Positions 6,565-29,340 of a stretch of DNA of 64,000 nucleotides are shown here, one piece after another. Source of the DNA: Patescibacteria group bacterium (lineage in GTDB: Bacteria > Patescibacteriota > Microgenomatia > Levybacterales > UBA12049); contig DATICB010000008.1 in the NCBI GenBank assembly GCA_035457005.1, positions 1,013-65,012 on the forward strand, given 5' to 3'. A program made the translations under genes and the position numbers. The notes beneath the pieces are model-generated. The model ran no database searches. It was given only the letters and a program-made list of their open reading frames with translations, and had not been told where the DNA came from. How positions within the stretch are numbered: position 1 is the first letter of the stretch; every line of letters starts with the position of its first letter.

Positions 6565-7326
6565 TTGCATAATGCTCGTATGCTTACCCTAATTCATGGA
6601 GACGATACCACTGCGAGTAGGAATTATTTTTTCGAAGAAAAACAGCACTATCCCGATGCTTTGCGAATTGAGGGAAGTGCAATTTCTCCAACAGATCTCC
6701 AACAATATATGTCTGGACAAGATTTATTTGGTCAAACAAAAGCCATTTTTATTGATACACTGATTTCCAAAAGGAAATCTCCAAAAGAAATAGCCCAGCT
6801 TATTGAAGTTATCAATCTTTCACCAGATACGCCTATTTTTTTATGGGAAAGCAAAGAGTTGACAAAAAAGCAAATTGAACTATTTAAAAAAATAACAGTG
6901 AAGCTTTTTAAAATTCCCTCAACTATTTTTGCACTTTTAGATGCACTGAAGCCAAACAATGGCCAAGTTTTATTAGATCTTTTCCATAAAACGCTTCTTG
7001 ATAAGGATGCAGAGTTTGTTTTGGTGATGCTTGAAAGACAGATAAGAATTTTGCTAGCGATCTGTGGTGTCATTCCTGCGAAGGCAGGAATCCAAAAAGA
7101 AGATAAAGAACCTGGATCCCTGATCAAGTCAGGGATGACAATAAGTGAGGTATCGCGCCTTGCTACTTGGCAAAAAGGCAAGCTGGAAAAGCAGGCAACA
7201 CTATTTACTGCTCAACAACTGCTTCAATTACATAATGCTTTGTTCCATTTGGAAAAAAATATGAAAACAGGAAATCTTTCTCTGCCGCTTGATAAGTCCA
7301 TTGATTTACTTCTCCTTTCGCTATAA
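6565..7326 (+). CDS. holA: DNA polymerase III delta subunit-like protein (HolA-like) carrying an in-frame repeat-element insertion
   Basis: N-term LTLIHGDDTTASRNYF resembles delta LLLGNDxLL; C-terminal domain-III-like segment; 73-bp palindromic element at 7068-7140 read through in frame. Confidence 0.45.
   Translation: MHNARMLTLIHGDDTTASRNYFFEEKQHYPDALRIEGSAISPTDLQQYMSGQDLFGQTKAIFIDTLISKRKSPKEIAQLIEVINLSPDTPIFLWESKELTKKQIELFKKITVKLFKIPSTIFALLDALKPNNGQVLLDLFHKTLLDKDAEFVLVMLERQIRILLAICGVIPAKAGIQKEDKEPGSLIKSGMTISEVSRLATWQKGKLEKQATLFTAQQLLQLHNALFHLEKNMKTGNLSLPLDKSIDLLLLSL
7068..7140 (-). mobile_element. MITE-like palindromic element, type I (two hairpins, TGTCAT...ATGACA termini), inverted orientation, inside CDS
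   Basis: TGTCATTCCTGCGAAGGCAGGAATCC...CCTGGATCCCTGATCAAGTCAGGGATGACA; both hairpins identical (as reverse complement) to copy at 49155-49218. Confidence 0.8.
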
Positions 7327-7335
7327 ACTGACACC

Positions 7336-8217
7336 ATGTGGTTTTTCTTAGCACTGGGAAGTGCTCTTTTTTATTCTTTCCGGGGGATACTGGAAAAAAG
7401 AATTATTGGAAATGTTGATAAATACATTTTAGGCTTGGCAATTAGGCTTTTTGCAATTCCTTTCTTCTTTGTTCCTTTTTTGTGGAGTCCCAATTCTTTT
7501 ATTTCTCCGCTTCATCTGAGCTGGCAATTTTGGACTGTTGTAGCGATTATTTGTTGTATTACAACGCCCATTGAAACGATTTTGTATTATAAAGCACTTC
7601 AAACAGAAGAAGTAACATTAATTTTACCAATTCTTGCGCTTGGTCCGGCGCTCACTGTATTGTGGGGCTCGTTAACACTTCATGAAATTCCAAGTTTATT
7701 TGGCTTAGTAGGTGTTTTGTCTCTTGTTTTTGGTGTCTATGCGCTCAAAATTGGCCATGCCAAAGAAGGACTTTTAGAACCCATTCATCATTTGCGCAAT
7801 AATCCAGCAATTCGTCTTATGTTTGTGGTTATGCTTTCATCGTCTTTGAGTAGTGTATTGGATAAAGTAGGTGTTGTTCATTCCAATGCATACATGTATG
7901 GATTAATAAATTACTTGGCTGTATCAGTAGCACTTTTTGTTATTGCTTTGTATAAATCCAAACATCATCTTCGCCAACTTATTACTCACAAAACACCATT
8001 TTTGGTTATTGGTACAGTAATTGCAGCGTATACCCTTCTTAATTTCTTAGCACTCCAAACAGGATTTGCTGGATACGTTGGTGCAGTGAGGGCATCGTAT
8101 CTTCTTTTTACCATGATTATGGGAATACTTTTCTTAAAAGAAAAAGACGCCAAGCAAAAAATACTTTCGGGGATATTTATTGTCCTGGGTCTTATTTTAA
8201 TAAAGCTCTTTAGCTAA
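7336..8217 (+). CDS. EamA/DMT-family transporter
   Basis: 293 aa, ~10 TM helices in two repeated halves. Confidence 0.65.
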   Translation: MWFFLALGSALFYSFRGILEKRIIGNVDKYILGLAIRLFAIPFFFVPFLWSPNSFISPLHLSWQFWTVVAIICCITTPIETILYYKALQTEEVTLILPILALGPALTVLWGSLTLHEIPSLFGLVGVLSLVFGVYALKIGHAKEGLLEPIHHLRNNPAIRLMFVVMLSSSLSSVLDKVGVVHSNAYMYGLINYLAVSVALFVIALYKSKHHLRQLITHKTPFLVIGTVIAAYTLLNFLALQTGFAGYVGAVRASYLLFTMIMGILFLKEKDAKQKILSGIFIVLGLILIKLFS

Positions 8218-21502: not shown

Positions 21503-23218
21503 CTATTTCGCGGCAGCATCTATAAATGCAAGAAAAAGCGGATGTGGCTTGAGTGGTCGACTTTTATATTCTGGATGACCTTGTGTGCCCATATAAAATG
21601 GGTGAACAGACTTGGGTAATTCAATAATTTCAGCTAATTTTTCGTGCACAGACCTAGCAGAAATAACAAGTCCTGCCTTTTCGAAATCTTTGACAAAAGC
21701 ATCATTAAACTCCCACCTATGCCTATGACGTTCGGATGTTAGGCCTTCTTTTTCATTAATAAATCCGTTATATTTTTTGTAAAATTCAAATGCCCTTGTG
21801 CCCTTTTTGACAATTGCATCCCAGCTGCCAAGTCGCATAGTCCCACCATATGCGCGTCTCTTCATGGCACTTTCTTGTGCTGGCATGAGATGAACCACGT
21901 CGTGCTTAGTTTTTAAATCATTTTCCGATGTATTTGCATCTTTCCAACCCAAGACATATCGTGCAAATGCCACGCAGGCAAGCTGCATACCATAGCAAAG
22001 GCCAAGGTAGGGAATTTTTTGCTCCCTCGCATAATTTGCAGCAAGTATCATACCTTCTGCGCCTCTTTCGCCCCAACCAATTGGCACAATAATACCGTCT
22101 GGATTTCCCAAAACTTCTTTAATTCCTTCTGCTGCGTCTTTTTTACCAGCCAAAGCTTTTGCAACTGCTGCCTCTACTTTTTCTGCACTGACCCATCGAG
22201 TTGTGACGTCAACTCCCTCTTTCCATCCAGCATGGTCTATTGCATCAAAAAGTGCTGCATAGGCATCGCGAAGTTGGTATTCCCCTGTTCCAAAATATTT
22301 TCCTACAATGGCAATTTCTGCTCTTTTTTTCTTTGGTTTTTTAATAGTGGCAACAAAACCTTTCCACTGAGTAAGATTTGCTTTTTTTGCAGGAAGATTA
22401 AGTTTTTTCAAAATCTTTTCTTCAAGCTGTTGATCGTGCAGGACAAGCGGAATTTCGTATGCACTCGGAAGGTCAGGATTGGAAATAATATCTCCTTCGT
22501 GCATGTTACAGAAAAGTGCAAATCTGTCTCGGCGCCTTTGATCTATAAATTTTTCTGATCTTGCAACTATAAAATCAGGCTGAATACCCATGGAATTAAG
22601 CGTGCGCACAGAAAGCTGTGTTGGCTTGGTTTTTGGTTCCCCTAAATGCTTTGGTGTTGGGACATAACTGACATGGATATGAATCACATCTCCTGGATTT
22701 TTCCATGCCAAAATTCTACTTGCTTCGTAGTAAAAAATGTTTTGATACTCCCCTGCTGTTCCACCCAATTCAACAATGACAATATCCGCATCTGACACTT
22801 CTCCTGCGTGCTTAATTCTTTTATTAATTTCATCGGTAATATGAGGAATTGCCTCAACATCTTCACCGTTGTATTCAAATCGTCTTTCTTTTTCAATAAC
22901 CGTTGCATAAATTTTGCCCATGGTAACAAAATTATTTTTCCCCATATCTCTATTAAGGAATTTTTCATAGCTTCCCAAATCTAAATCTGCTTCTGTACCA
23001 TCTTCACACAAAAAGGGATCACCATGTTCTATAGGGTTAATAGTACCTGCGTCAAGATTCAGATAGTTTTCTACTTTAATAGGGGCAATGCTGTAGCCTG
23101 CAGATTGGAGTAATAATGCGATTGATGCTGCTGTCGTGCCTTTTCCGATGCCGGATATGAGTCCTCCAGACACAAAAATGTATTTTCTTCGTTTCGTTGT
23201 AGATTTTCTAGCGGGCAC
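21503..23218 (-). CDS. pyrG: CTP synthase
   Basis: KYIFVSGGLISGIGKG N-term synthetase domain, C-terminal glutamine amidotransferase (GLCYGMQ); 571 aa. Confidence 0.9.
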   Translation of the reverse strand: MPARKSTTKRRKYIFVSGGLISGIGKGTTAASIALLLQSAGYSIAPIKVENYLNLDAGTINPIEHGDPFLCEDGTEADLDLGSYEKFLNRDMGKNNFVTMGKIYATVIEKERRFEYNGEDVEAIPHITDEINKRIKHAGEVSDADIVIVELGGTAGEYQNIFYYEASRILAWKNPGDVIHIHVSYVPTPKHLGEPKTKPTQLSVRTLNSMGIQPDFIVARSEKFIDQRRRDRFALFCNMHEGDIISNPDLPSAYEIPLVLHDQQLEEKILKKLNLPAKKANLTQWKGFVATIKKPKKKRAEIAIVGKYFGTGEYQLRDAYAALFDAIDHAGWKEGVDVTTRWVSAEKVEAAVAKALAGKKDAAEGIKEVLGNPDGIIVPIGWGERGAEGMILAANYAREQKIPYLGLCYGMQLACVAFARYVLGWKDANTSENDLKTKHDVVHLMPAQESAMKRRAYGGTMRLGSWDAIVKKGTRAFEFYKKYNGFINEKEGLTSERHRHRWEFNDAFVKDFEKAGLVISARSVHEKLAEIIELPKSVHPFYMGTQGHPEYKSRPLKPHPLFLAFIDAAAK

Positions 23219-23316
23219 GATTTACTATAGCAAGGAAAAGTGATTTCGTCAAGATGAAAAGTTAGCCAAACAAAAACCGTTGACACTATTATAAGATATT
23301 TGTTATTATCACATTC

Positions 23317-23823
23317 ATGGCAAGAAACAAAGATATACCACAAGGAATAGATGCAGATAGATTTGGTTACCCAGTACGAATTACTCATAGTCGTTATATA
23401 CCACGCAGCCAGAGACGGGACTTGCTTCGCCCTTATAGTGATGAGCAGCTTGAGAAAGTTATAATTAATCTTGATGAGAGTAAAAAAAGATGGAGAATGA
23501 TAGAACGAGGCGGAATAGCCCTATCTGCAGTTGCCTTTTTAGGGACACTTGCCACACTTAACGCTGTTGCTATTGAGCAGTCTCAAGGCGCCTTACTTGA
23601 TCCAATAACAAGTGAAATTTTTGAAGGAATTAATCACATGATGCCTCTCTATCACTCTTTGGGTATCAATGACATGTTCTCCGCATATTTTTTAACTTCT
23701 ACAACAGCAATTTCACTACCCCTGAGCATAGGGCTGTCGGGTACAGTAATACGAGACGAACGCATAGGGAGAATCCAAGAAGTAAAGGTTGAACAAGCAA
23801 GGCGAGCTGCAACAGGAAAATAA
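23317..23823 (+). CDS. hypothetical protein with central hydrophobic segment
   Basis: 168 aa; TTGACA-17-TATTAT promoter-like hexamers ending 7 nt before ATG. Confidence 0.45.
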   Translation: MARNKDIPQGIDADRFGYPVRITHSRYIPRSQRRDLLRPYSDEQLEKVIINLDESKKRWRMIERGGIALSAVAFLGTLATLNAVAIEQSQGALLDPITSEIFEGINHMMPLYHSLGINDMFSAYFLTSTTAISLPLSIGLSGTVIRDERIGRIQEVKVEQARRAATGK

Positions 23824-24089
23824 ACCACACATTTTTTCATTTTCAAACCTCACCAAGTTGGTGTATGTATCTGATGTGCATGGTATCTATTTTTACTAAG
23901 TTTTATATTTGCATAGTGATATGAAATATGAAATGAGATTATTGCAACAAGTATGCATGACCTCTCGTGAGAAGACAACTGCAATTACCTTAGTGCCGCT
24001 TTCAAGAAGTAATAAGGAGCCGATTAAAATGACACCTCTTTTCTTAGAAGATACGCTTACTGCCAGCACAAATGGTGGGATGTTGCACC

Positions 24090-24400
24090 TGAAAACCTGA
24101 AGCTGGCTTATCATTGCGATTGCTCAAGCTGTTGCGCTGGTCCAAATCATTCCGAAGGCCTGTGCCGCAACTGCACTCAGATGAAAAGAAAAGGCAAAGG
24201 GTGCCTCTACTGCAGGTATTAAATGATCTATTAGAATAATGAGTTTTCGTAGCTGTGTCTTGTTTTTGAGCGGGCGACGAGAATCGGACTCGCTACCTTC
24301 TCCTTGGGAAGGAGACATTCTACCGGTGAACTACGCCCGCCAATGTAACACACGTTACCTTGCATGATTTTATCAAAAAGTGTGACGGCTTTACTATAGA
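24090..24400 (-). ncRNA. candidate structured RNA / structured 3' UTR (unclassified)
   Basis: GC-rich; long hairpin CGGGCG(24271-76)...CGCCCG(24335-40) enclosing perfect TCTCCTT-GGG-AAGGAGA hairpin (24299-24315); no credible ORF; downstream of promoter-driven GC-rich unit. Confidence 0.2.
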
Positions 24401-24404
24401 GGAT

Positions 24405-24929
24405 TTAATGTGGCCTTGATCTACGTCCTCGAATCCGTACGGATAACGCACCAGGTTGCACTTCTAAACCAACAGGTGGTATTACCGTCACCCCGTGACT
24501 TTCGAGCCTAGAGGTCAACTCACCCTCAAAGTCTGTGTTCACGTCTCTGCCCCTAATAGCTCCGCTCACTACTCCAGCAGCAGCGCTATCTAGAGCGCCC
24601 CCTAGCCCACCTCGAACACCTCTTACTCCCCTGATCTGCATTCTTGACGGTTCTCCTTCCTCTCGTTTTGGTTCATTGCCTACATCAATAGCTACCTGAG
24701 CACCGCGTGCGCTTGCAGAAATTGTTGCTGTTGGGTCTGACTCTGTTCCTCCAAATGTAACAATTACATCACTAACGCTTTGTCCGTGCTCTGTAATTGC
24801 TGCCCTAGCAAGCTCACCTGCTTCTCTCGCATTTACACGTCTTGTAACGACAGTCTCCCCTTCTGCTGAAAATTGTCCAGCAATTTCCTCTACAGCCTGA
24901 TCAAGAGGAGATTCTGTTGCTGTTTTCAT
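24405..24929 (-). CDS. hypothetical protein (GC-rich, Gly/Ala/Arg-rich); coding status uncertain
   Basis: ORF from MKTATESP (24929) with TTGACA-17-TACAAC hexamers ending 7 nt upstream; composition atypical for this genome. Confidence 0.3.
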   Translation of the reverse strand: MKTATESPLDQAVEEIAGQFSAEGETVVTRRVNAREAGELARAAITEHGQSVSDVIVTFGGTESDPTATISASARGAQVAIDVGNEPKREEGEPSRMQIRGVRGVRGGLGGALDSAAAGVVSGAIRGRDVNTDFEGELTSRLESHGVTVIPPVGLEVQPGALSVRIRGRRSRPH

Positions 24930-25026
24930 GCTTTTTGTTGTATCAAAAACCCAAAAATATGTCAATATGACTATTACAAGTCTGATAATGTTGACAGCTA
25001 TCTTTCAATTCCCGTACGATACAGTC

Positions 25027-26337
25027 ATGAATGAAGTTGCTGTTAGAGGACAAGAAGTTGGTAGACAAGAAGTTGAAAAACCAACACAACCGCCTACAGA
25101 ACCTGTTTCTTCAGAAAAAGTACCCGAGCAAAAAAAGAAAAGAAAAATTCATTTTAACCTTAAAACAGTGCGAGTTAAGAGAAAATTAATACAAGAACCT
25201 AAGCCAACACCCGCAGAGTTTATGACGCCAAGGCAGTTATATCAGGCAAGAGGATACGAACAGTTTGGGATGAGAAGTGCAGCAGAACAAAATGTCTCCC
25301 TCCAAACGCAGACAGAAAGGCAGATAATCAGAGACGAAAAGCTTGTTGAGCAAGAGCTAGAAAAAGAATACAAACTCGAAGAGCCTCATCACAAGACAAA
25401 AGTATCTTTTGGAGAAAAAGTAAAAAATATTGCAGAAGATTTCCAATGGACGGTCGGAAAATTAACGCGTGGTAATATCGTAAAACATTTACGACAGATC
25501 GCTCACGACCCAGCTCATTACCAAGAAGAGCTGGAAGCAGAATTACAAAGGTCGCTGAATACAATGACAGAACCTTCCGAAGATAGGGTTTTCAGTACGC
25601 TAACGAAATTACAGGCTGGCACAACTGCTGTCGCATCTGTTTTGCCCCCGATTCCATTGGGTGTCGTTTTTGTTGGCCCTATTCCTATCCCGGTTGTGTA
25701 TTCATCGGGAACAATCCTGGTTGAATCTGTTAATAACATACCTAACACAGTAAAAGCATTCAAAGAAAAACGTTTTCGTAAAGGTTTTGCCTACGCAACT
25801 ATGACTACTATTGGCGCATTAACAGGATTTATCCCTATGTCGCACCATTTTACCAATACACTGTATACAGAAATACTGCAAAAACCATTCGATCACGCAG
25901 AAACGCACGGTATGCTTCAGATTGTTGACTCTCTTTTTGCCAATACTGCAACTGCTCAACAGCATGCGTTGGGAAAGCAGCTTGTTGATAAGGCTACTAA
26001 ACAGTATGCCGCAACACACGGATCAGCCGTACCTCTTCAGGAGAGATTAAGAGACATACAGTCATTTGAGCAACAAAAGAAGGATGTGCTATTGCAAAAA
26101 AGAGCGCAACTAGAATTAGACCTTTTAGCACTTCCAGAAAGAAAGAAGATCTCACAAAAAATAGCCTTAATTACAAAACCTACGGAGATAAAAAAACGAA
26201 TTGCAATTACAGGAGAACATTTTCGACTAGGACAGGAATTAATTGATGTTGAGCACAGATTACACACGATTCCACAACTTTTAGAAATTATTCGAGCAAG
26301 TACTGTTGAGGCAAAACAAACTACCTTGGGAGCGTGA
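25027..26337 (+). CDS. hypothetical protein
   Basis: Start placed at MNEVAV (25027) 6 nt after TTGACA-18-TACGAT hexamers; tool ORF began 24928; one internal hydrophobic stretch. Confidence 0.4.
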
Positions 26338-27247: not shown

Positions 27248-27436
27248 GTCTCTCACCTCCTTTCTAAGGAAAAAGTGTAAGAAAAACACTAGTATGGAGC
27301 AATGCACATGAAATGCGTATGTCGTTGATACCCATACAACTTTTTGGTACAATTAGTCCTGGAAAATATCCAGAGAAAATTTGACATAGCAAACTAAAAA
27401 TGCTCAAAAGGTGACATGCATTTTTACTAATTCTCT

Positions 27437-27510
27437 GGGGTGGTAGCTCAGTTGGCTAGAGCGCCTCCCTGTCACGGAGGAGGTCGCGGGTTCGAGCCCC
27501 GTCCATCCCG
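27437..27510 (+). tRNA. tRNA-Asp (anticodon GUC)
   Basis: GGGGTGGTAGCTCAGTTGGCTAGAGCGCCTCCCTGTCACGGAGG...GGGTTCGAGCCCC; anticodon loop CTGTCAC. Confidence 0.9.
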
Positions 27511-27546
27511 CATTATCATTGTTTGAACTTCAGTTGTTCGTTTGCT

Positions 27547-29340
27547 ATGCTAGATTTAATGACCAATCTGCAGATTGCAAACCTTCTTCGACATGTTGCA
27601 GCTAGCTTTACTATTAAGGGCGAACAGCAATACCGTTTTCAGATTATGGCCTACCAAAGAGCCGCAGACAGCATTGCCAACACCACGACGCAAATTGCTG
27701 ATTTGATAAAAGAAGAAAAATTAGATGAAGTTGCAGGAATTGGAGAGTCACTCAAGTCGCATTTAAAAGAGCTTATTAAAACAGGGAAAGTAAAACACTG
27801 GGAGTCAGTTATGAAAGATGTTCCGCCTGCTGTTTTTCCTTTGCTCGATGTCCCGGGTTTTGGGCCAAAGAAAGCATATAAAATTGTGACTCTTTTTAGA
27901 CTAAAAAATCCCAAAACAGTTATTGCGGATGTTGAAAAATTAGCCAATAGCGGCCAAATTGCAGGCATTGAAGGTTTTGGTGCTAAATCGCAAGAACTGA
28001 TGCTGAAACACGTTGGTGAATTTAAAAAAGGGTCTGGGAAAGCAACGCGAATGCTTTTGCCTTTTGCAACAGAAGTTGCAGAAAAACTAGTAAATTACCT
28101 TAAAAAATCTAAAGACGTTGTTGATGTGCAACCATTGGGCAGTCTGCGACGCAAATCGCCAACCGTTGGTGATGTAGACATTGCAGTAGCAACAAAAAAT
28201 CCAAAAGAAGTGATTGACCATTTCACCTCGTACCCATACAAAGAGCGTGTTATTGAAAAAGGACCAACAACTGCATCAATTTTGACCTCTGGCGGTCATC
28301 AAATTGATCTTATGACGCAGCCTGTTGCAGCATGGGGTTCACTTTTACAACACTTTACTGGTAGTAAACACCATAATGTTCACCTTCGAGAATATGCACT
28401 CAAAAAAGGTTTGTCACTTTCTGAATATGGCATTAAAAAATCAGGAAGTGAAAAACGAGCCATGTATGACTCGGAAGAAAAATTTTACCATGCAATTGGA
28501 CTTGATTGGATTCCTCCAGAAATGCGAGAAGATCATGGCGAAATAGAAGCTGCCCTTCGCTCTGCTCAGGGTAAACATCCCGGTTTACCAAAACTGATTG
28601 AACTAAAAGATATTAAAGGAGATTTGCACATTCATTCTAGCTATCCTATTGAACCAAGTCACGACCTAGGACAAAACACCATGCAAGATATGTTGGATTA
28701 TGCCAAGAAGTTGGGCTATGCATATTTAGGATTTTCCGAACATAATCCAAGCGTTTCCAAACACTCTCGTGCTCAAATTGCATCCATTCTTCAAAAAAGA
28801 AAAAATTATATTGAACACATAAAATCGAGTAATAAAAATATTCGAGTATTTAATTTACTGGAAATTGATATTTTAGCAAATGGTGATTTGGCAGTTGATG
28901 AAAAAGGACTTGAAACATTGGACGGTGCTCTTGTGTCTATTCACAGTTCATTTAGTGGAACAACTGAGGCAATGACCAAGCGTGTTTTACAGGGTCTCTC
29001 TCACCCGAAGGCAAAAATCCTTTCCCATCCAACAGGAAGACTCATTAATAGTAGGGCTGGATATCAACTTGATTGGGATAAAATCTTCTCTTTCTGTAAA
29101 GAGCATCATAAAGCATTGGAAATTAATGCATGGCCGGAGAGAACAGATTTGCCTGATAGTCTTATTATGGAAGCCATAAAACACGGTGTTAAGATGGTTA
29201 TTGATACCGACAGTCATGCAACAGGACAAATGGGTAACATGCGATATGGTGTGTGGAATGCCAACCGCGGTTGGGCCGAAAAAAAAGATATTCTTAATAC
29301 GTTAGGGTATAATGAGTTTGAGAAGTGGTTAAAAAGTTAG
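27547..29340 (+). CDS. DNA polymerase X family protein with C-terminal PHP domain
   Basis: PolX N-terminal HhH region (IANLLRHVAASFTIKGE), PHP motif HIHSSYP; ATG at 27547 (tool ORF started at TTG 27523). Confidence 0.75.
   Translation: MLDLMTNLQIANLLRHVAASFTIKGEQQYRFQIMAYQRAADSIANTTTQIADLIKEEKLDEVAGIGESLKSHLKELIKTGKVKHWESVMKDVPPAVFPLLDVPGFGPKKAYKIVTLFRLKNPKTVIADVEKLANSGQIAGIEGFGAKSQELMLKHVGEFKKGSGKATRMLLPFATEVAEKLVNYLKKSKDVVDVQPLGSLRRKSPTVGDVDIAVATKNPKEVIDHFTSYPYKERVIEKGPTTASILTSGGHQIDLMTQPVAAWGSLLQHFTGSKHHNVHLREYALKKGLSLSEYGIKKSGSEKRAMYDSEEKFYHAIGLDWIPPEMREDHGEIEAALRSAQGKHPGLPKLIELKDIKGDLHIHSSYPIEPSHDLGQNTMQDMLDYAKKLGYAYLGFSEHNPSVSKHSRAQIASILQKRKNYIEHIKSSNKNIRVFNLLEIDILANGDLAVDEKGLETLDGALVSIHSSFSGTTEAMTKRVLQGLSHPKAKILSHPTGRLINSRAGYQLDWDKIFSFCKEHHKALEINAWPERTDLPDSLIMEAIKHGVKMVIDTDSHATGQMGNMRYGVWNANRGWAEKKDILNTLGYNEFEKWLKS

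Follow-up and report, generated by a model that had tools for sequence, protein, structure and literature searches.

A conserved tRNA-Gly(CCC) gene and a probable lineage-specific orphan gene with a leaderless-type promoter in a GC-rich region of a Patescibacteria genome

The new analysis of a 64-kb stretch of Patescibacteria DNA (hereafter the window, meaning this whole stretch; 38.8% GC) indicates that a GC-rich region on its minus strand, between positions 24,090 and 24,929, combines two different genes. Specifically, we read the region as a conserved tRNA gene, tRNA-Gly(CCC), preceded by a genuine, lineage-specific orphan gene of 174 codons, ORF174, which is served by a leaderless-type promoter, and we put the probability of this composite reading at roughly 85%. 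An earlier reading made from the letters alone (the original prediction) had described a promoter-driven unit consisting of an atypical open reading frame (ORF) and a 300-nt structured tail that could be a non-coding RNA. The structured element of that tail is an ordinary conserved tRNA-Gly(CCC) gene and a member of Rfam family RF00005. No evidence is left for a new RNA class, and the proposal of a novel RNA is thus largely refuted.

The tRNA-Gly(CCC) gene

The RF00005 model matches over its full length (model positions 1-71) at 24269-24340 on the minus strand, with 58.1 bits and an E-value of 1.5e-11 against a gathering threshold of 29 bits for this family, and ARAGORN calls a tRNA-Gly with anticodon ccc at 24268-24340 on the same strand. 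At the gathering threshold, Rfam finds five tRNAs in the whole window, this one among them. The cloverleaf is complete, with a 7-bp acceptor stem (GCGGGCG/CGCCCGC) that encloses TCTCCTTCCCAAGGAGA, a 4-bp D stem, a 5-bp anticodon stem (TCTCC/GGAGA, loop TTCCCAA) and a 5-bp T stem; CCA is not encoded. In an alignment of 15 copies, the window copy included, the 7-nt anticodon loop T-T-CCC-A-A, with U33 and a purine at position 37 (A37), is invariant in all 15, every one of the 294 cells of the cloverleaf stems is paired (100%), and 14 of the 21 pairs show compensatory changes. This level of covariation was reached by none of 500 shuffles, and slid controls were only 42-58% paired. The relatives scanned carry tRNA-Gly(CCC) at the orthologous position upstream of pyrG.

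The window copy shares with bacterial tRNA-Gly(CCC) the complete cloverleaf, the U33/CCC/A37 loop and the position before pyrG, and differs from it in one T-loop base: the loop at 24282-24288 reads UCCGAUU, which places U54-C55-C56 where U54-U55-C56 would stand. U55 is near-universal in the tRNA T loop and strongly conserved, yet it is no defining requirement, and C55 recurs in five of the 15 aligned genes (the window, L010, L026, L027 and L042), while the other ten have UUCGAUU or a close variant. A separate observation concerns locus L013 (JBCLLY010000006.1, Levyibacteriota), in which a perfect 11-bp inverted repeat (TCCCGTTAAGC/GCTTAACGGGA) encloses tRNA-Gly(CCC). The flanks of this repeat look like the two ends of a second tRNA, one like its acceptor/D start and the other like its T-arm/acceptor end, and the whole 169-nt arrangement at 7604-7772, unique among 83 loci, has a folding-energy z of -3.9. 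Possible readings are a nested tRNA-like element, an insertion within another tRNA gene and a chimeric assembly.

All of the nested GC helices of the original prediction are accounted for, because they fall within this gene. The outer pair CGGGCG...CGCCCG and the enclosed TCTCCTT-CCC-AAGGAGA are present as described, but they form the tRNA, and the supposedly perfect 7-bp inner hairpin overstates the 5-bp anticodon stem by two anticodon-loop bases on each side. A non-coding RNA does lie downstream of the ORF, although as a plain 73-nt tRNA and not as a novel RNA of 300 nt. Beyond these 73 nt, the tail at 24030-24267 folds no more stably than its dinucleotide shuffles (folding-energy z +0.21 for the minus and +1.26 for the plus strand). 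A permissive cmscan of 23700-25300 at E<=10 returned no match to RNase P RNA, transfer-messenger RNA (tmRNA), 6S RNA or signal recognition particle (SRP) RNA, and besides the tRNA gave two noise matches, H19_3 and sR60; ARAGORN likewise found no tmRNA. The RNase P-like words that had been pointed out do occur, but AGUCCG belongs to the T arm of the tRNA. A hit to a known RNA had been named beforehand as the outcome that would reclassify the region, and the tRNA is that hit; the proposed look at covariation likewise ends with the 15-copy alignment, which supports the tRNA and nothing else. Additionally, no nucleotide conservation outside the tRNA was seen around the locus in 80 pyrG-syntenic loci from related Patescibacteria, mostly Levybacteria-like metagenome-assembled genomes (MAGs), which had been anchored on the neighbouring CTP synthase gene.

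The orphan gene ORF174

ORF174 runs from an ATG at 24929 to a TAA at 24407-24405 and is annotated by NCBI as a coding sequence. Its elevated GC content, 50.0%, agrees with the original prediction, which had taken high GC as a sign of RNA structure. The excess, however, is confined to codon positions 1 and 2: GC at positions 1, 2 and 3 (GC1, GC2 and GC3) is 0.66, 0.55 and 0.293 in ORF174 against 0.50, 0.36 and 0.295 in host genes, and it is therefore due to a protein rich in Gly, Ala, Val, Arg and Glu, not to base composition as such or to RNA pairing. The residues behind it are encoded by GNN and CGN/AGR codons, whereas synonymous sites are as AT-rich as in the host, and the ORF shows no fold excess over shuffles (z -0.39). 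The Gly/Ala/Arg-rich character noted originally thus stands (G 13%, A 11%, V 11%, R 10%, E 10%).

Codon usage points in the same direction. Under a host codon model trained on 40 long ORFs within the window, the log-likelihood ratio (LLR) in the ORF174 frame is 0.382 bits per codon, within the host range of 0.14-0.46 (median 0.303), while the other five frames are negative; by thirds of the gene it is 0.55, 0.43 and 0.16, positive in all three. The score for synonymous choice alone is 0.126 bits per codon, again within the host range and about 6 standard deviations above uniform recoding (-0.227+-0.059). Given the local composition (first-order Markov model), so long a run without stops has a probability of P=0.0008. 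The only other copy, on an independently assembled 1720-nt contig that covers the same region (L001), is identical over the whole ORF.

The predicted product has a mass of 18 kDa and is sharply bipartite, with acidic residues 1-100 (isoelectric point, pI, 4.6) and basic, Gly/Arg-rich residues 101-174 (pI 11.4); hydropathy gives no transmembrane segment. A single-sequence AlphaFold2 (AF2) model hints weakly at alpha/beta structure in the N-terminal half and at disorder in the C-terminal part. Most likely, the product is a small soluble protein whose N-terminal half is acidic and of alpha/beta type and whose Gly/Arg tail is basic and disordered. A link between the Gly-rich product and the GGG-decoding tRNA was not significant: GGG accounts for 4 of the 23 Gly codons in ORF174 and for 9% in the host.

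The original prediction had recognised no family for ORF174, which the searches bear out. A word-indexed search of 5.8 billion clustered proteins returned the self-match only (VLB73_01790, from a Patescibacteria MAG, 72-kb contig), and Pfam, NCBIfam, PHROGs, PADLOC, PDB sequences and phages (tblastn) gave no match. Exhaustive HMMER against 1.84 billion representatives listed three matches, giant PKD-like/Rib/He_PIG repeat proteins (P0002-P0004), which were rejected as homologues, as their E-values are sums of weak repeats whose single units reach 13-25 bits (E 1.7-8200 when scaled to the library size). No Ig-like repeat family (PKD_6, Rib, He_PIG) gave a significant single-domain match, and Pfam DUF2076 reached 15.6 bits against a cut-off of 38. 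As judged from these comparisons, ORF174 is an orphan, and about 15 billion proteins yielded no convincing homologue. It resembles other ORFans of Patescibacteria, or the candidate phyla radiation (CPR), in belonging to no family, in its lineage restriction, its partial low complexity and its place in a variable region between conserved genes, and differs from them in that its intrinsic coding signals are unusually clear for an orphan.

Promoter and initiation

The promoter hexamers TTGACA-17-TACAAC, ending 7 nt before the ATG, are present exactly where the original prediction had placed them. The TACAAC lies at 24942-24937, and an upstream TG makes it an extended -10 box. Counted as hexamer pairs that match at least 10 of 12 positions and whose -10 box ends 5-8 nt before an ATG, this promoter class precedes 0.23% of the ordinary ATGs of the window and 7% of the first ATGs of long ORFs, which supports the proposal of a promoter-driven unit. 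No Shine-Dalgarno (SD) motif precedes ORF174. With its -10 box 7 nt from the ATG, ORF174 most likely yields an mRNA that lacks a leader or carries one of 0-2 nt, with SD-independent initiation.

Several neighbours share this geometry, so that leaderless-type initiation would be a habit of the genome and no peculiarity of the ORF174 unit: pyrG starts with TTGACG-17-TATAGT-5-GTG, ORF168 with TTGACA-18-TATTAT-7-ATG, and the divergent gene on the other side of the ORF174 promoter (ORF469) has a comparable promoter of its own (Table 1). SD-like 4-mers are not enriched at starts in the window (8.9% versus 7.4%), and leaderless, SD-independent initiation appears to be usual for the first genes of transcription units here, as far as promoter geometry can tell. 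Leaderless genes are known from Actinobacteria, Deinococcus and the "group C" genomes of GeneMarkS-2; nothing specific on leaderless translation in CPR bacteria was found in the literature. ORF174 resembles the known cases in a -10 box ending 6-7 nt before the start, the absent SD motif and the ATG, and differs in that its -10 box is TACAAC, with a final C, after TGn. Across the window, a -35/-10 pair with the -10 box ending 5-8 nt before the start is found at many first genes, for example at 6580, 7336, 9092, 12254, 16739, 18211, 23218, 23317, 25027, 33482, 43343 and 53002.

Table 1 Features of the GC-rich region and its neighbourhood, in window coordinates
Feature	Position	Strand	Description and basis
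ORF174, orphan protein-coding gene	24405-24929	-	NCBI hypothetical protein VLB73_01790; codon statistics, length, annotation
ORF174 promoter	24937-24965	-	TTGACA 24965-24960, 17-nt spacer, extended -10 TGa-TACAAC 24945-24937; sequence, 10/12
tRNA-Gly(CCC) gene	24268-24340	-	73 nt; Rfam RF00005, ARAGORN, synteny, covariation
Candidate own promoter of tRNA-Gly	24375-24367	-	extended -10 TGATAAAAT; sequence, inferred
Terminator-like hairpin and T-run	24210-24184	-	7-pair stem with 3 GC pairs, then CTTTTCTTTT; weak, inferred
Cys-rich open frame	24028-24222	+	64 aa (…YCQHKWWDVAPENLKLAYHCDCSSCCAGPNHSEGLCRNCTQMKRKGKGCLYCRY, then stop); translation; covers most of the earlier "tail"
Divergent-gene promoter	24991-25020	+	TTGACA-18-TACGAT, 6 nt before ATG 25027; sequence
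ORF469, divergent gene	25027-26337	+	436 aa from ATG 25027 (VLB73_01795); small uncharacterised family
Lineage-specific block 1	24349-26320		2 kb, LysM to tRNA-Gly; ORF174 and divergent gene; no similarity, 80 loci
Lineage-specific block 2	23234-24263		tRNA-Gly to pyrG; ORF168 and Cys-rich frame; no similarity, 80 loci
ORF168	23317-23823	+	in block 2
pyrG (CTP synthase)	21503-23218	-	neighbour used to fetch syntenic loci

The surrounding locus

In the relatives, the order tRNA-Asp, LysM, tRNA-Gly(CCC), pyrG is conserved, with LysM mostly about 50-230 nt from tRNA-Gly, and the slot between the tRNA and pyrG, which is occupied by unrelated accessory genes, ranges in size from 44 nt to 4 kb. The similarity of the window to these loci is limited to LysM (down to 26321), the tRNA (24348-24264) and pyrG (from 23233). 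The two blocks in between are lineage-specific, and tblastn of their four ORFs against the 80 syntenic loci gave no match.

The fourth of these ORFs is a Cys-rich open frame on the plus strand, with 10 Cys in 64 codons, CxxC pairs and no ATG, GTG or TTG start, and the original statement that no ORF follows ORF174 is therefore only loosely true. A strong ribosome-binding site, AAGGAG, with an ATG at 24029 (24013-24031) lies in the adjacent frame, which meets a TGA after 23 codons. Codon LLR is negative in all frames of this region and GC3 is 0.52, a non-host usage; the sequence is identical in the independent assembly L001. Pfam, NCBIfam, PHROGs, PADLOC, phages (tblastn), PDB and metagenomes gave no match to the frame, which could be a frameshifted zinc-ribbon pseudogene or a case of programmed frameshifting.

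These variable flanks raise the question whether the blocks are remnants of a mobile element, either an integrative element or a prophage, that targeted tRNA-Gly and brought ORF174 as foreign cargo. tRNA genes are classical integration sites, and the variation of both tRNA flanks among relatives, the four ORFs unique to the lineage and the foreign codon usage of the Cys-rich frame would all fit such an origin. The expected traces, however, are missing: repeat searches found no att-like repeat around tRNA-Gly, neither a duplicate of the tRNA 3' end nor bounding repeats, and there is no integrase and no match in PHROGs, PADLOC, phages or plasmids. Furthermore, GC3 is host-like in three of the four block ORFs (ORF174, ORF469 and ORF168), all of which also carry host-type leaderless promoters, and the corresponding slots in relatives hold accessory genes of a housekeeping type. 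We consequently regard a mobile-element origin as unlikely.

A further observation at this locus concerns tRNA-Asp(GTC) at 27437-27511 on the plus strand, which is inverted relative to 10 of the 10 relatives that carry it, where it is co-oriented with LysM, tRNA-Gly and pyrG. Imperfect 24-nt inverted repeats (79%) at 27377-27400 and 27534-27557 flank the gene, and the arrangement suggests a small local inversion.

The divergent partner gene

The divergent gene, ORF469, begins at the same ATG as in the NCBI annotation. It belongs to a family of three members, in the window, at 710-1960 of locus L082 and at 110-1486 of locus L083, all of which adjoin LysM/tRNA-Gly and share a conserved core of 31 residues; the two homologues, P0006 (50% identity) and P0007 (31%), lie on short Logan contigs. 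The leaderless promoter geometry is kept in all three loci, with TTGACT-17-TACCAT-6-ATG in L082 and TTGACT-18-TACCAT-6-ATG in L083. AF2 models the product as all-helical (predicted local distance difference test, pLDDT, 55), and hydropathy gives one hydrophobic, Pro-rich segment; an alignment-based metagenome scan, a PDB profile search, Pfam and Foldseek returned only generic helical-bundle noise. The four differences between the window and L001 all lie within 25084-25149, the low-complexity N-terminal part of this gene, and no difference occurs in the remaining roughly 1650 nt, which contain all of ORF174 and the tRNA.

At the position of ORF174, L082 has a divergent gene that is open for at least 207 codons, with the same promoter (TTGACA-17-TTTGATACAAC) and the same composition and phase pattern of GC (GC1/2/3 0.69/0.48/0.32). 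It is too diverged from ORF174 to align, and a search with it as the bridge query retrieved no homologues, nor did Pfam or PDB give a match. We read it as a rapidly diverging positional orthologue of ORF174 whose homology is marginal. The ORF174 product may act together with the helical partner, and ORF174 and the ORF469 family would then form a coupled, very fast-evolving two-gene accessory cassette of a narrow Levybacteria-like clade at a variable site anchored by tRNA-Gly. Such a cassette could pair an acidic/basic bipartite protein that diverges past recognition with a helical, possibly membrane-associated partner that keeps 50% identity. This is a tentative idea to which we give a small share of belief.

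Weighing the readings

Several findings weigh against the composite reading. The last third of the ORF is the weakest, with the lowest LLR and a GC3 of 0.40; the AF2 model is of low confidence (pLDDT 44) and too poor for a fold search; the -10 box lacks the usually invariant final T, a defect mitigated by the upstream TG and by its identity in L082; the resemblance to the L082 counterpart is marginal (BLASTP E 0.005 over 41 aa; shuffle p 0.04-0.06); and L083, in the order tRNA-Gly, about 60 nt, ORF469 homologue, LysM, has no ORF174-like gene, so that the pair is not obligatory. ORF174 might thus be a chance or decaying open frame in a non-functional insert, perhaps transcribed as a tRNA leader and giving no functional protein. 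The lack of homologues, the absent SD motif, the low-confidence model with its low-complexity C-terminal part and the absence from L083 and most relatives would be compatible with this view. Yet a chance frame accounts poorly for the host-like synonymous choice, the phase-specific GC and the improbable length; the missing SD motif is the norm among genes of the window; and the L082 counterpart has stayed open with the same composition, although the partner gene there is just 50% identical. We therefore consider a chance frame quite improbable and retain the reading of ORF174 as a genuine orphan gene. A novel structured RNA, or a divergent RNase P, tmRNA, 6S or SRP RNA with an incidental ORF, can point to the locally raised GC (0.45-0.53 over the region, 0.45-0.47 in the tail), a genuine promoter and genuine nested helices at 24268-24340, but is hardly credible, given that the helices are a canonical tRNA, that no further Rfam family matches at E<=10, that neither the tail on either strand nor the ORF folds better than shuffles, that the GC excess is strictly phased in threes and that nucleotide conservation ends with the tRNA.

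A model of the transcription unit

The available data are compatible with a model in which RNA polymerase, directed by the sigma-70-type promoter TTGACA-17-TGaTACAAC, would begin transcription at the ORF174 ATG or right beside it, yielding a leaderless mRNA that would be translated without an SD interaction. Part of this transcription would read on into tRNA-Gly, 64 nt downstream; such read-through is probable because no terminator-like site was seen between ORF174 and the tRNA. From this transcript, RNase P and 3' processing would then free the tRNA. A second start may arise from its own extended -10 box, TGATAAAAT, which sits in the 64-nt spacer, 26 nt upstream of tRNA-Gly; in L010, L014, L022, L027, L042 and L083, a TGnTAnnnT motif precedes this tRNA by about 9-10 nt. 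The terminator-like hairpin with its T-run, 58 nt downstream of the tRNA, is a plausible, if weak, end of the transcript, and the remaining tail would be an unstructured spacer that the Cys-rich frame overlaps on the other strand.

Co-transcription of mRNA and tRNA is exemplified by the E. coli thrU-tyrU-glyT-thrT-tufB operon, which the proposed unit resembles in that its protein-coding gene and its tRNA gene share one strand, here 64 nt apart, and have no terminator between them. In contrast to that operon, the coding sequence precedes the tRNA and the tRNA apparently has its own promoter. The linkage of ORF174 to the tRNA is, moreover, not conserved, as the tRNA of the relatives follows LysM or an ORF469-like gene.

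Implications

The significance of these results lies mainly in correct annotation. Specifically, they illustrate that a local rise in GC within an AT-rich genome is no sure sign of structured RNA, and that the codon phase of the GC excess decides the question quickly. As a minor point of value, translation in the source genome seems to depend on starts that are leaderless and SD-independent. Furthermore, gene content in Levybacteria-like Patescibacteria varies strongly at the tRNA-Gly(CCC) site that separates LysM from pyrG, a hot spot that could be mined for lineage-specific accessory genes. Were the two-gene cassette to prove real, its pattern would be the one expected under diversifying pressure, as in host-interaction or anti-phage functions of episymbiotic CPR bacteria.

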